In this document: positions 4,612-14,761 of the stretch, one piece after another
Position numbering within the stretch: position 1 is the first letter of the stretch
Layout: each line of letters begins with the position of its first letter
Origin: Pirellula staleyi DSM 6068
GTDB taxonomy: Bacteria > Planctomycetota > Planctomycetia > Pirellulales > Pirellulaceae
Direction of reading: 5' to 3'
DNA: 32,000 nucleotides
Assembly (NCBI GenBank): GCA_000025185.1
Contig: CP001848.1
Span: 4,320,001 to 4,352,000, forward strand
The notes under the pieces: model-generated
Told to the model about the DNA's origin: nothing
Database searches by the model: none
The model's input: the letters and a program-made list of their open reading frames with translations, nothing else
Made by a program: the position numbers and the translations under genes

Positions 4612-4663
4612 AGAAAGTGCCTCGAGTAGGACTCGAACCTACAACCCGCTGATTAAGAGTCAG
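4612..4663 (-). repeat. Truncated tRNA-Lys 3' fragment; exact 52-bp direct repeat of 14683..14734 (attR-like)
   Basis: agaaagtgcctcgagtaggactcgaacctacaacccgctgattaagagtcag is identical at both loci. It covers tRNA positions 28-73 plus 6 nt of 3' flank. No acceptor 5' strand (GCCTCGA) or D-arm lies upstream, so it is not a functional tRNA. Confidence 0.9.
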
Positions 4664-5342
4664 TAGGTTCTACTACATAGTCACTCATTGATCGAAGTCT
4701 ATTAACCTTAAACATCTTAGGGATTCGTAGCTACTCTGATTTTGATTTACAACCTTGAAAGTTGACCTGCCCCAGATTGACATGTTGGGTTGCAAATAGG
4801 TCGCAATATTCCCCACCCCTCTCTTGGCCTTTGGGAATGGCGAGTTTTGGCCGAGTGTCAAACTTTTCAGAACCAATTTTCCGCACCTGTCGATTCCCGT
4901 TTGAAGCTCTTTTCCAAATCGTGGGTGAAAAAATCGCATGTGCGGCGGCAGGCAGTTCTTGTAGTAGGGAGATTCGTCTTCCCATCTGCCCTTGGAAACA
5001 CCCCCGCCGCACTGCTGTGACCGAACTGCACAACACGGGGGAGAACAGTATCTATCTGTTCCGATTTTAGCGAGCAGGCACCTCCCAACAGCTGATGACG
5101 AAAGCTTGTAGCCTTGTGGAATGCGGTTTCGCACTGTCGATATTCGCACAGCTGGCTTCGTTTGTTGAACACCCTCACCGGGTTGTGGCACCTCCCTAAC
5201 GGGGAGTCACAAGCAATGCGACAAATTCGCATTCCATCGCGGCGGCCTTAATCTCCTAAATCCGCGATGTAGATACCCACATGTCGCTCCATTGCCTGTG
5301 TTGATCTCGGGAGGCTGCGACGTGCACACAAAGGCAGGTTGT

Positions 5343-6257
5343 ATGCAAGCTCCGAATCATGTTTTGCACGTGGATGACGATGTCAGTTACACCAGACTCG
5401 TGGCAAGGCGCATGAAAACGCTCGGCTACTCCGTTATCTCACTGAACGATCCTCGCGGTATCGAAACGCATGTCACTTCACTGCAAATAGGGATCATTCT
5501 TCTGGACCTCGATATGCCGTGGCGACATGGGCTCGAGGTGTTGGAATCGCTCCGAAAAATGCCCGGTGATCGACGTGTGATTGTGCTCAGCGGCTGTATT
5601 TCCGTTGGCACAGTGATCAACGCCATGGCACTGGGAGCTGACTATTTATTCTTCAAAGACAGATTCGATTTTTCGGAACTAGCAGATGCGATTGCCTCCC
5701 TGCAATCGCGCCGTCGTCAATGGTTTCGCGGGGCTCAGCAAACAGCTCGGCATCAACGTTTGAATCGCCTGGAGCGAGACCGACGGGCTGCTGAACCCGG
5801 TGAGAACACCCTCTCGGAAAGCAGTACGGGCGAGCAGGCGATGTGGGATGCAGTGGCCTCGCACGACGATACAAAGTCTGCCGCTCCGAAGGGCTCCCGC
5901 AGTCCCGAGAGTCGGCAGATTCAGGAGCTAATACGCAAACGCATGCTCACCAAGGCTGCCCTGGGACGGGCCGAGCGGATCGCCGATCAACTCACACCCA
6001 CGCTGCTGCAGTTGGCACTGAGCCGTGGCATGCTGACACCCGAAGACGCGATTCGTATCGCGATCGCTGGGAAAAAAACAGAGGCTGCGATCGCCCGCGA
6101 ACTACTGTCGCAAAAGCTTTGTACCGCGACAGAAATCCGGCAACTCGAGCATCAACAATCGCTCCTCAGGCCGCCGCTCATCACGATTCTCTCGACACTC
6201 GGCGAGATACCAAAAACTGAGAACACAGCCAGCAACACGTCGGTCCTGGCGATTTAA
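5343..6257 (+). CDS. Response regulator receiver protein with a C-terminal helical-repeat region resembling a T2SSE_N (GspE/MshE N-terminal) domain
   Basis: ORF 5292..6257; ATG at 5343 (MQAPNHVLHVDDD). REC signature residues are present: DDD, phospho-acceptor in ILLDLDMP, VLSG, FFKD. The C-terminal LLQLALSRGMLTPEDAIRIAIAGKKTEAAIARELLSQKLCTATEIRQL follows the L..G.L....l..A......lg..L pattern of T2SSE_N repeats. That domain call is by eye only. Confidence 0.75.
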   Translation: MQAPNHVLHVDDDVSYTRLVARRMKTLGYSVISLNDPRGIETHVTSLQIGIILLDLDMPWRHGLEVLESLRKMPGDRRVIVLSGCISVGTVINAMALGADYLFFKDRFDFSELADAIASLQSRRRQWFRGAQQTARHQRLNRLERDRRAAEPGENTLSESSTGEQAMWDAVASHDDTKSAAPKGSRSPESRQIQELIRKRMLTKAALGRAERIADQLTPTLLQLALSRGMLTPEDAIRIAIAGKKTEAAIARELLSQKLCTATEIRQLEHQQSLLRPPLITILSTLGEIPKTENTASNTSVLAI

Positions 6258-6301
6258 CGCATCGATCATTGTTCCCTGCTTGCTACCTTTTGAGCTCCCC
6301 C

Positions 6302-13886: not shown

Positions 13887-14339
13887 ATGACGATTCAATG
13901 CACAAATGATGATCTTGTGGCGATCACACAGAACATCGTTGAGACCGTACTGCATGCCACGCTGCACCTTGGTGAGCCAGCCCCTGCGGTGCAGTACGCA
14001 CTTAGCGGCTGTATTCAACTGGCTGGAGCTTGGCAAGGGGCGGTGATCCTCGACTGCAGCGACGAATTTGCAGCGCAGGCCGCGGCTGCTATGTTTGGTC
14101 TCGCGCCCGACGCTGTAGAGCCACAAGACAAGATCGACACCGTCGCTGAACTCGTCAACATGCTTGGTGGAAACATCAAGTCGATCTTGCCGGGGCCTTC
14201 GTTCCTGGCCCTTCCCACGGTGACAGCGGGGGAGGATTACAAGATTGAAGTTCCGAGCGCCACCTGCGAATCGATGATCGAGCTAGGAAGCAGTATCGGC
14301 GCGCTCCGATTTTCGATTTGGCGTGTCGGCTCAACCTAA
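13887..14339 (+). CDS. CheX/CheC-like CheY-P phosphatase family protein
   Basis: ATG at 13887 with GGGAG 9 nt upstream. About 150 aa. Contains the D-x3-E-x2-N motif (DTVAELVNMLGGNIKS) characteristic of the CheC/CheX/FliY active site. It is the last gene of the che operon. Confidence 0.7.
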   Translation: MTIQCTNDDLVAITQNIVETVLHATLHLGEPAPAVQYALSGCIQLAGAWQGAVILDCSDEFAAQAAAAMFGLAPDAVEPQDKIDTVAELVNMLGGNIKSILPGPSFLALPTVTAGEDYKIEVPSATCESMIELGSSIGALRFSIWRVGST

Positions 14340-14682
14340 GAGCAGACGGAATAGCAGTCGGCCGATTTACTGCAAAGCTGGCGGTTCAAATATCGACGAA
14401 AATGTTCAGGTCGCACCCCGTTCAAGCCGCTGAGCAGCCGTGAGTTTTCGCAAAACTAGAAAACTCGACCTGCACGAACTACCGCTCGCCGCTGTCGTCA
14501 AGAGAATGCCCAACGGATCGCGCGGCCACTACCCGAGATTCTCAAGCAAGTTGGCAGAATCGCCAGAAGAAAACCGGCAGGCCGATTTGAATCCTGCGGT
14601 TGCAAATAGGTTGTAAAACTTAAATTACAACCTTCGATACCCATGCGTTGCGTCGCTGCAAGTCGTTGTCTTGCAAAGGCTT

Positions 14683-14734
14683 AGAAAGTGCCTCGAGTAG
14701 GACTCGAACCTACAACCCGCTGATTAAGAGTCAG
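14683..14734 (-). repeat. 52-bp direct repeat copy embedded in and just 3' of the intact tRNA-Lys (attL-like)
   Basis: Identical to 4612..4663. Spans the tRNA from the anticodon stem to the 3' end (14689) plus 6 nt of downstream flank. Confidence 0.9.
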
Positions 14735-14761
14735 CTGCTCTGCCAGTTGAGCTATCGAGGC
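14689..14761 (-). tRNA. tRNA-Lys (anticodon CTT)
   Basis: Manual cloverleaf on the reverse complement: acceptor GCCTCGA/TCGAGGC, D stem GCTC/GAGC, anticodon stem GCTGA/TCAGC with loop CTCTTAA (CTT), variable loop GGGTT, T arm GTAGG-TTCGAGT-CCTAC, discriminator A. 73 nt; CCA is not encoded. Confidence 0.95.

Follow-up and report, generated by a model that had tools for sequence, protein, structure and literature searches.

A che operon between two copies of a tRNA-Lys 3' end

The window analysed here, a 32-kb stretch of Pirellula staleyi DSM 6068 DNA, holds on its minus strand an intact tRNA-Lys(CTT) gene whose 3' part recurs as a direct repeat some 10 kb away. Between the two repeat copies lie only an eight-gene che operon and approximately 1 kb of non-coding ends:

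4612-4663, minus strand: distal copy of the att core (fragL), made up of tRNA-Lys 3' sequence displaced from its gene and 6 flank nucleotides, adjoining the CBAH-side chromosome
4664-5291: left non-coding end, 628 bp, with ORFs lacking Pfam or PHROG matches
5292-6257, plus strand: REC protein opening the operon, its C-terminal half uncharacterised (PF00072, E 1.3e-14)
6269-8989, plus strand: CheA histidine kinase with two Hpt, a dimerisation, a HATPase and two CheW-like domains (Pfam)
9038-9472, plus strand: CheW (PF01584, E 1.1e-32)
9544-11466, plus strand: MCP (HAMP and MCPsignal), a single dedicated receptor (Pfam)
11516-11896, plus strand: CheY-like single-domain response regulator, 126 aa (PF00072, E 5.3e-29)
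11898-13016, plus strand: CheB methylesterase, REC and CheB_methylest (Pfam, gene calls)
13020-13868, plus strand: CheR methyltransferase (Pfam)
13887-14339, plus strand: CheX-like CheY-P phosphatase (PF13690, E 2.2e-20)
14340-14682: right non-coding end, 343 bp, without an integrase remnant
14689-14761, minus strand: intact tRNA-Lys(CTT) (ARAGORN and Rfam), whose last 46 nt together with 14683-14688 form the proximal copy of the att core

The tRNA gene was called at 14688-14761 by ARAGORN and matched at 14689-14761 by the Rfam tRNA model (71.5 bits), both on the minus strand. Positions 4612-4663 and 14683-14734 are identical at 52 of 52 nucleotides, comprising tRNA-Lys positions 28-73 (46 nt) and 6 nt of 3' flank, with the polarity correct for a tRNA-integrated island; neither ARAGORN nor alignment to tRNA-Lys found a tRNA 5' half at the left copy. 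The window has no other long exact repeat of this kind, and a match of 52 nt within 32 kb cannot be ascribed to chance.

CheA, CheW, MCP, CheY, CheB, CheR and the phosphatase all score above Pfam thresholds and form a single co-directional cluster on the plus strand. Two gene starts were called differently in a sister strain described below, in which the REC gene begins at the equivalent of 5322 (311 aa) and CheA (895 aa) at the equivalent of 6302. The nearest relatives of the segment's Che proteins are encoded in Pirellulales che operons; for CheA, the next relative after the identical protein is 78% identical and all others approximately 50% or less. CheR is 100% identical to the protein listed at NCBI for Pirellula staleyi DSM 6068. 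We infer that the chemosensory pathway specified by the operon is complete and of Pirellulales type, and that the operon would today be an ordinary resident one.

Searches of the window with Pfam and PHROGs returned no integrase, excisionase, phage or transfer domains, and between the repeats no phage structural, packaging or replication families; the 52-mer itself is absent from viral contigs (IMG/VR). An earlier note on this DNA, made from its letters alone, had reported the intact tRNA, the exact repeat lacking a 5' half, the co-directional che cargo with AT-richer ends and the want of any mobility or phage gene; each of these observations stands.

Non-coding ends and repeated motifs

Both ends of the segment are AT-richer (GC approximately 0.50-0.51 vs 0.55-0.59) and hold clusters of a nonamer, GGTTGYAAA:

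4746-4754, minus strand: GGTTGYAAA, left end (motif scan)
4788-4796, plus strand: GGTTGYAAA, left end (motif scan)
approximately 4799-4807: degenerate motif unit GGTCGCAAT, left end (read by eye; reported by no scan)
14598-14606, plus strand: GGTTGYAAA, right end (motif scan)
14609-14617, plus strand: GGTTGYAAA, right end (motif scan)
14624-14632, minus strand: inverted motif unit with one mismatch, right end

All four exact occurrences of GGTTGYAAA in the 32 kb fall within 150 bp of the inner side of the two island ends, and the 12-mer TTGCAAATAGGT is present in exactly one copy per end. Such clusters may be arm-type sites; a 20-nt arm motif had no match in viral contigs (IMG/VR). The left end presumably holds the operon promoter, and scans of both ends for sigma-70 promoters and terminators were uninformative. 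Neither 4664-5291 nor 14340-14682 yielded the remnant of an integrase pseudogene in tblastn, Pfam or PHROG searches; the only signs of decay in these arms are indels and lost motif units. Between strains, the right end carries a 63-bp indel polymorphism at 14484 and has lost one motif unit (11 bp) in strain L094, and the arms also show a motif substitution.

A second element at the same tRNA gene

The sister strain, represented by the metagenome-assembled genome (MAG) GCA_002483025.1 and approximately 98.6% identical to the window, carries a second element, E2, at this tRNA. On one of its contigs (L081), CBAH is followed by the strain's own distal repeat copy (fragL'), the che operon, a tRNA fragment of 48 nt whose end lies at the anticodon loop and, up to the contig end, unrelated DNA encoding a DUF1580 protein, a tRNA-Met and CsrA. 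On another (L084), element cargo is followed by a 428-aa tyrosine integrase (PF00589, 42.9 bits; phrog_1, E 1.6e-25), an intact tRNA-Lys and the window's right flank (98.6%), with homology to the window beginning exactly at 14683. The integrase gene starts approximately 100 bp from the 3' end of a tRNA-Lys that is identical to that of the window at 73 of 73 positions, and the integrase-tRNA junction was also recovered from a second sample (L086). Taken together, the two contigs give an array of tRNA-Lys, E2 integrase, 48-nt fragment, che operon and fragL', with three copies of the tRNA 3' end. E2 is at least 11 kb long, and no conjugation or mobilisation genes were detected in the 11 kb seen; its integrase had no match in viral contigs.

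This array shows that tRNA-Lys remains a live integration site and that E2 came to lie between this tRNA and the che segment through tandem accretion. As E2 occupies the same tRNA and brings a third 3' copy, the repeat in the window is a genuine att site, and the tRNA gene a hot spot of integration. The earlier note's reading of the 52-nt repeat as the att scar, in the right geometry, that a tyrosine recombinase leaves on integrating at tRNA-Lys is thereby supported. The repeat starts at tRNA position 28, in the anticodon stem, for the che segment and at position 32, in the anticodon loop, for E2. Beside the tRNA, E2 carries the same six extra flank nucleotides (GACTTA) as the CBAH-side flank, a match of 58/58 that fits the CBAH side being the native downstream flank of the tRNA.

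Whether the E2 integrase could serve the older segment is a separate matter. The ends of the che segment and of E2 share no similarity that could be found beyond the att core, and GGTTGYAAA is absent from E2, so that the E2 integrase may not act on the che segment. As tblastn queries, neither this integrase against the window nor the other E2 proteins against the segment between the repeats gave a match.

The repeat might instead have nothing to do with the integration of che, being a local duplication, a rearrangement or an assembly artefact beyond a native operon, as host-like composition and the missing integrase would allow. This explanation is disfavoured by the recurrence of the architecture in the independent MAG and in unitigs and contigs from several samples. 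Moreover, the repeat begins within the anticodon stem/loop, a region in which the bona fide integrase element of the sister strain also crosses over, the motif clusters sit symmetrically inside both ends and the operon is found elsewhere in a related species; we consider it hardly credible.

Composition, divergence and fixation

The earlier note proposed a comparison of composition with the flanks, and no foreign signature emerged: in GC3 (0.60-0.65 in the segment vs 0.56-0.74 in the flanks) and in tetranucleotide distance (0.0190 vs 0.0170 +/- 0.0018, with E2 at 0.022-0.042) the segment is indistinguishable from its flanks. Nor does it stand out in divergence, with strain-to-strain identity at 98.78% for the segment and at 98.28% and 98.68% for the two flanks. 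Because the segment has diverged as its flanks have, it has descended vertically since the strains split, and over that time its distal repeat and arms have been decaying. The distal copy of the sister strain carries four substitutions where neutral non-coding identity is 93-96%; the idea that this copy reflects a different tRNA allele was rejected, the four differences fitting local neutral divergence.

The segment is present in every sampled strain of the species and looks fixed, given its host-like composition, its flank-like divergence, the neutral decay of its repeat and the failure to find an empty site. With composition and divergence both like those of the flanks, a recent foreign origin and present-day mobility are left without support. 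The earlier note would have taken composition equal to the flanks, and an operon shared by all relatives at this locus, as evidence against an island; this was found in part, as the composition does equal that of the flanks and all available strains carry the segment at flank-like divergence.

Fixation in all sampled strains and fully host-like composition would also be expected of an ancient, long-ameliorated island in which gene conversion, with the selected tRNA copy as donor, has maintained or renewed the 52/52 identity, and all four between-strain substitutions lie in the sister's copy, with none in the window's. However, both copies lose their identity abruptly at the edge of the tRNA-derived block, the sister copy decays at the neutral rate, which makes conversion sporadic at best, and a split of four changes to none between lineages is statistically ordinary (approximately 1 in 8). 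A donor within Pirellula accounts for the composition equally well, and great age combined with conversion appears a rather remote prospect.

Related species and the search for an empty site

In a related species (L091/L083, from Logan SRR33531174 and JGI 3300076802) the operon is collinear, with CheR 88% and CheA 78% identical at the amino acid level, and homology to the window extends over 5264-14324 only. There, the operon sits between different genes (in L091, PAS-kinase and ECF-sigma flanks), elsewhere than at tRNA-Lys, and no tRNA, att fragment or flanking repeats were found around it; the left end of the segment shares no homology with the flank of this operon, similarity beginning at 5264.

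An empty site, that is, a restored attB, would take the form of a full tRNA-Lys, then ...CTTTCTTAAGTCTTAGCCC, then CBAH. The earlier note had suggested looking for such a site and for an excised circle; neither the site nor a circle junction was found in any sequence collection searched, and the insertion is therefore read from its scar rather than seen. Metagenome contigs held 0 matches to a DNA pattern for the left junction, the E2 junction and the empty site. Unitigs of 10.14 kb from Logan, with identical 30-nt ends, were considered as circles and rejected, since 30 equals k-1 and both termini fall within the repeat: an assembler with k=31 yields a 30-nt terminal overlap for any repeat-bounded segment.

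The flanking genes offered little purchase on other species. CBAH was discarded as a syntenic anchor, its relatives in one scan of genome contigs being at most 77% identical (aa) and scattered across families, and none of them adjoins tRNA-Lys. For the GT2 and PSCyt/PSD1 proteins of the right flank, searches of the protein database and of JGI metagenomes gave no relatives above approximately 50% aa identity and no synteny with tRNA-Lys. Flank-gene relatives are so distant that the orthologous tRNA-Lys site is not visible in other species.

These searches bear on the suggestion that the segment is still mobile, served by an integrase in trans (for example that of the tandem element) or moved in cis as part of a composite. 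Its att cores are intact and identical in the window strain, both arms keep their repeated motifs, an orthologous operon occupies another locus in a related species, and an integrase element with an overlapping core lies in tandem at the same tRNA, an arrangement from which CIME-ICE composites are mobilised (PMC5704250). Against this, neither an empty site nor a circle junction was detected, the 10.1-kb unitigs being an assembler effect; the flank-like divergence points to vertical descent since the strain split; the sister strain's distal core has accumulated its four substitutions, and the arms their 63-bp indel, lost motif unit and motif substitution; and the ends of the tandem element lack the arm motif. 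Continuing mobility is unlikely.

A proposed history of the segment

The segment of 10.07 kb at 4612-14734 is probably a decayed, integrase-less, CIME-like island integrated into tRNA-Lys(CTT) at its 3' end. In this history, the che operon would have arrived on a circular element whose attP contained the last 46 nt of the tRNA. A tyrosine integrase, crossing over within the anticodon stem/loop, would have recombined this circle with the tRNA gene, rebuilding the tRNA from the element's copy and displacing the original 3' end by 10 kb to its present place at 4612-4663, beside CBAH. The integrase, missing now, may have been deleted or may never have been encoded in the segment, which would have kept both att cores and a GGTTGYAAA cluster in each arm. 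Neither an integrase nor a transfer gene has left any remnant, and an origin from an ICE or IME by deletion is thus unproven. Of the possibilities raised in the earlier note, the segment is best read, in the light of the sister-strain array, as a fixed island whose integrase was lost. It is doubtful that the segment is instead a functional non-autonomous cassette, a chromosomal operon of the Pirellula lineage captured between att sites and moved, inside one Pirellula genome or from one to another, by integrases supplied in trans that act via GGTTGYAAA; were this true, no mobilisable cargo-only element would have been demonstrated in Planctomycetota before it.

To our knowledge, mobile elements have barely been described in Planctomycetota, and almost no gene-transfer machinery has been characterised there. 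The che segment provides a clean, datable case of a whole signalling pathway joining a chromosome via a tRNA hot spot, with all signs of mobility gone except the att scar; such an island would escape composition-based island finders. DSM 6068, without the tandem integrase element, and its sister strains, with it, constitute a natural experimental system whose two states are suited to testing the cis-mobilisation of integrase-less islands in Planctomycetota. Knowledge of how such islands form is unchanged by the che segment.

Comparison with known systems

Sublocation classes of tRNA-integrated islands and prophages, with tyrosine integrases crossing over in the anticodon stem-loop, were reportedly set out by Williams in 2002. 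Like classical tRNA islands, the che segment has an intact tRNA rebuilt by the element and a direct repeat of the tRNA 3' end at its far side. Unlike them, it has no integrase beside the tRNA in the window, its composition does not deviate and its presence is invariant among the available strains.

Tandem arrays at one t(m)RNA hot spot are known from the ssrA islands of Dehalococcoides (PMC3146451) and the tycheposon islands of Prochlorococcus (bioRxiv 10.1101/2020.12.28.424599). In those arrays, as here, repeated integration at a single RNA gene moves the older elements further out, boundaries consist of partial tRNA or ssrA repeats, and degenerate integrase-less remnants persist with metabolic or adaptive cargo. 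The mobility modules differ, the serine recombinase DsiB of Dehalococcoides and the tycheposon tyrosine recombinase (YR) with replication genes of Prochlorococcus both being absent here, and only two elements have been seen at the tRNA-Lys site.

The earlier note held that no described class of element fits, a view that does not survive comparison with CIMEs, which keep attL and attR having lost their integration and transfer genes (PMC5704250). An incoming element accretes in tandem at the tRNA-proximal att site of a CIME, and tRNA-Lys is a known target there too (PMC5704250). In the account that PMC5704250 gives of Pavlovic 2004 and Bellanger 2011, CIMEs and their tandem accretion to ICEs or IMEs are exemplified by the ICESt1-related elements of Streptococcus thermophilus. 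The che segment likewise lies between attL and attR sites formed from the target gene's 3' end and is devoid of integrase, excisionase and transfer genes, and the integrase element of the sister strain has inserted at the tRNA-end att site, in tandem with three direct repeats. CIME-like by att sites and gene content, it departs from CIMEs in having no ICE or IME remnant genes, and from CIME pairs in that E2 shares no arm sequence with it and shows no conjugation or mobilisation genes over 11 kb. Its host is a planctomycete and its cargo a complete chemosensory operon, unlike those of described CIMEs. The locus is probably a known kind of decayed element, CIME-like, in an unusual phylum and with an unusual cargo.

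The chemosensory segment and its boundaries

The roughly 10-kb che segment lies between the 3' part of a tRNA gene and a detached copy of that part, delimited as follows:

14688-14761, minus strand: tRNA-Lys(CTT), the sole tRNA in the window (ARAGORN); placed by Rfam at 14689-14761 (71.5 bits)
14683-14734: right copy of a 52-nt direct repeat (100% identity)
4612-4663: left copy of the same repeat, the distal tRNA fragment

The left copy comprises tRNA-Lys positions 28-73 (second anticodon-stem base through discriminator), the other 6 nt of the repeat being tRNA 3' flank, and no tRNA 5' half was found there when the tRNA was searched against the window with BLAST. 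The coordinates and description of tRNA and repeat in the earlier note proved exact in ARAGORN, Rfam, the repeat finder and BLAST alike. Eight co-directional genes lie between the copies, with every Pfam score far over threshold.

Genes of the che operon, as assigned by Pfam
REC-domain protein
CheA, with two Hpt and two CheW-like stretches
CheW
MCP with HAMP, single copy
CheY
CheB
CheR
CheX

An internal direct repeat in cheA (47 nt, 87%; 6442-6488 vs 6913-6959) matches the two Hpt domains and reflects duplication of a domain within the protein. Neither Pfam nor PHROGs identified integrase, excisionase, phage or transfer proteins in the segment or in the rest of the window. The flanks of the segment carry planctomycete-typical PSCyt/PSD1 and DUF1501 genes. 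ORFs in the non-coding island ends (628 bp and 343 bp, with left-end GC down to ~0.50) are likewise without Pfam or PHROG matches.

An integrase-bearing element in a sister strain

A search with the CheA protein recovered a 100%-identical sequence in the MAG GCA_002483025.1. Its contig L081 aligns with window positions 1-14484 at 98.5% and on to 14730, diverging beyond, and carries in order the shared left flank, the left tRNA fragment (with 4 substitutions), the che operon, a 48-nt tRNA fragment terminating in the anticodon loop at ...GATTAAGAG, and unrelated DNA to the contig end (a DUF1580 protein, small ORFs, tRNA-Met and CsrA). The right flank of the window was located through its GT2 protein on contig L084 of the same MAG, where window 14683-26813 corresponds to 8932-21059 at 98.6% and homology sets in precisely with the repeat's first base. 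L084 holds an intact tRNA-Lys (8937-9010) and, with its gene start ~100 bp from the tRNA 3' end, a 428-aa tyrosine recombinase (PF00589, 42.9 bits against a cut-off of 27.1; phrog_1, E 1.6e-25) in whose sequence a typical box II motif (LRH...LGH...Y) can be read; an Xre-type HTH protein, an LRR-Roc-COR-TIR protein, SRAP and others lie beyond.

The array in the sister strain is thus right flank, tRNA-Lys, an element here called E2 (at least 11 kb seen), 48-nt fragment, che segment, 52-nt fragment and the choloylglycine-hydrolase-family gene (CBAH). The integrase-tRNA junction recurs in an independent sample (ENA ERZ27292800). Together, array and junction argue that tyrosine recombinases genuinely use the repeated block as an att site and that this tRNA-Lys is an integration hot spot in the species; the che segment sits where an older element would lie once a newer one had displaced it outward. 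The E2 copy beside the tRNA matches the left copy of the window over 58 nt, extending 6 nt (GACTTA) past the repeat into the CBAH-side flank; this hints that the CBAH side may be the original sequence downstream of tRNA-Lys, with the attP of E2 modelled on it. The ends of the che segment and of E2 have only the att core in common, and the E2 integrase and 13 other E2 proteins gave zero tblastn matches in the window.

E2 itself (L084 1-8925 plus L081 18493-20645) looks like a defence or accessory island: its LRR-Roc-COR-TIR (ROCO-type) protein has 843 aa and no PADLOC match, the HTH protein is Xre/CapH-like, SRAP, CsrA and its own tRNA-Met(CAT) are also carried, and the DUF1580 protein has a weak excisionase-like match.

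The operon in a related species

The closest non-conspecific operon, on a 101.9-kb Logan contig (L091) and a JGI contig (L083) that are 96% identical to each other, has all eight genes of the window operon in an identical order, with amino acid identities to the window of 88% for CheR and 78% for CheA. Homology is confined to window 5264-14324; the neighbours are PAS kinase/LuxR-type regulator genes on one side and ECF-sigma/Ser-Thr-kinase genes on the other, with no tRNA, tRNA-Lys fragment or flanking direct repeats within 10 kb. All remaining relatives are Pirellulales che proteins, ~50% identical. This pattern indicates an operon of Pirellula-lineage type, placed at different loci in two related species, of which P. 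staleyi alone has it framed by att sites.

Composition, age and mobility

Composition gives no support for a foreign origin of the che segment. GC3 is 0.60-0.65 in che genes and 0.56-0.74 in flank genes, and che windows lie at a tetranucleotide distance of 0.0190 from the flank profile, against 0.0170 +/- 0.0018 for flank windows, themselves included in that profile; E2, as positive control, reaches 0.022-0.042.

Window-to-MAG identity by segment
Left-flank genes: 98.28%
che coding region: 98.78%
Right flank: 98.68%
Non-coding stretches: 93-96%
tRNA: 73/73
Distal fragment: 48/52

By these identities the che segment predates the split of the strains, with vertical inheritance since, and the distal fragment evolves like neutral non-coding DNA. 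As the window copy has kept full identity to the tRNA, insertion probably did not take place many times earlier than the strain split, unless gene conversion intervened. A young insertion of host-like composition implies a donor very similar in composition, a picture that the related-species operon fits.

Several short repeats in each arm, near the core, are the expected appearance of arm-type binding sites for an integrase or RDF. All four exact GGTTGYAAA sites in the 32 kb (4746-, 4788+, 14598+, 14609+) fall inside the island, no more than 150 bp from one of its two boundaries, and an inverted unit with one mismatch lies at 14624. Each end has a single exact copy of the 12-mer TTGCAAATAGGT, and shuffles never attained the observed number of near-matches. 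These repeats are possible arm-type sites; they were found neither in E2 ends nor in the related species' operon flanks, and so would belong to the che element rather than to E2. The arms are decaying: a 63-bp indel at 14484 in the right arm (L081 18184-18245) separates DSM 6068 from all metagenome strains, the metagenome strain on L094 is missing exactly one 11-bp unit (about 6150-6200), and the MAG has a substitution in one motif.

No database contig searched showed an empty site or circle junction, and neither contig databases nor unitigs gave evidence of present-day mobility. Unitigs of 10.14 kb with ends overlapping by 30 nt were considered as circles and rejected, being k=31 repeat-bounded assembly units. 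The reading as a functional cassette of cargo alone, mobilised in trans, in Planctomycetota is improbable.

Other features of the window

The CBAH gene (3331-4389) may itself be horizontally acquired: relatives at 75-77% amino acid identity are dispersed over several planctomycete families, others at 57-64% occur in Bacteroidales, and none lies beside tRNA-Lys. Its surroundings (3001-6500) have the most deviant tetranucleotide composition. A non-coding repeat of ~215 nt (three copies, 86% mean identity; two in tandem at 28620-29075, one at 30003-30245) ends in inverted repeats (GTAGGTCAG...CTGACCTAC), is predicted to fold into a single long hairpin-like structure (-60.8 kcal/mol; compensatory changes in 5/59 pairs) and matches no Rfam family; a MITE/REP-like element and a structured RNA are both conceivable. 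A 122-nt inverted repeat (70% complementarity; 21525-21646 vs 30505-30626) joins the 3' end of a DUF1501 gene with an opposite-strand 474-aa ORF (30499-31923), probably as paralogous coding sequence.

Relation to known elements

ARAGORN, Rfam, the repeat finder, Pfam, PHROGs and tblastn bear out the observation of a tRNA-Lys, its repeat and a che operon with no integrase. Its interpretation as an att scar around a fixed island that lost its integrase appears largely right in light of the sister-strain array; the accompanying claim that no described element class fits is incorrect. Cis-mobilizable elements (CIMEs), which keep attL and attR without integration and transfer genes and can be joined in tandem by an incoming element at the tRNA-proximal att site, include a tRNA-Lys site among the published examples (PMC5704250). 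Arrays built by successive integrations, in which decayed remnants lacking an integrase persist, have been reported from ssrA in Dehalococcoides (PMC3146451) and from tRNAs in Prochlorococcus (bioRxiv 10.1101/2020.12.28.424599). Literature searches turned up no earlier account of this locus or of P. staleyi islands. Somewhat unusual are a cargo limited to a complete chemosensory pathway, the phylum, a composition like that of the host, and a natural strain pair with vs without a tandem integrase element. The che segment is best called CIME-like rather than a proven CIME, since ICE/IME-type descent and cis-mobilisation are putative for it; window and sister strain together show exactly the CIME architecture (PMC5704250).
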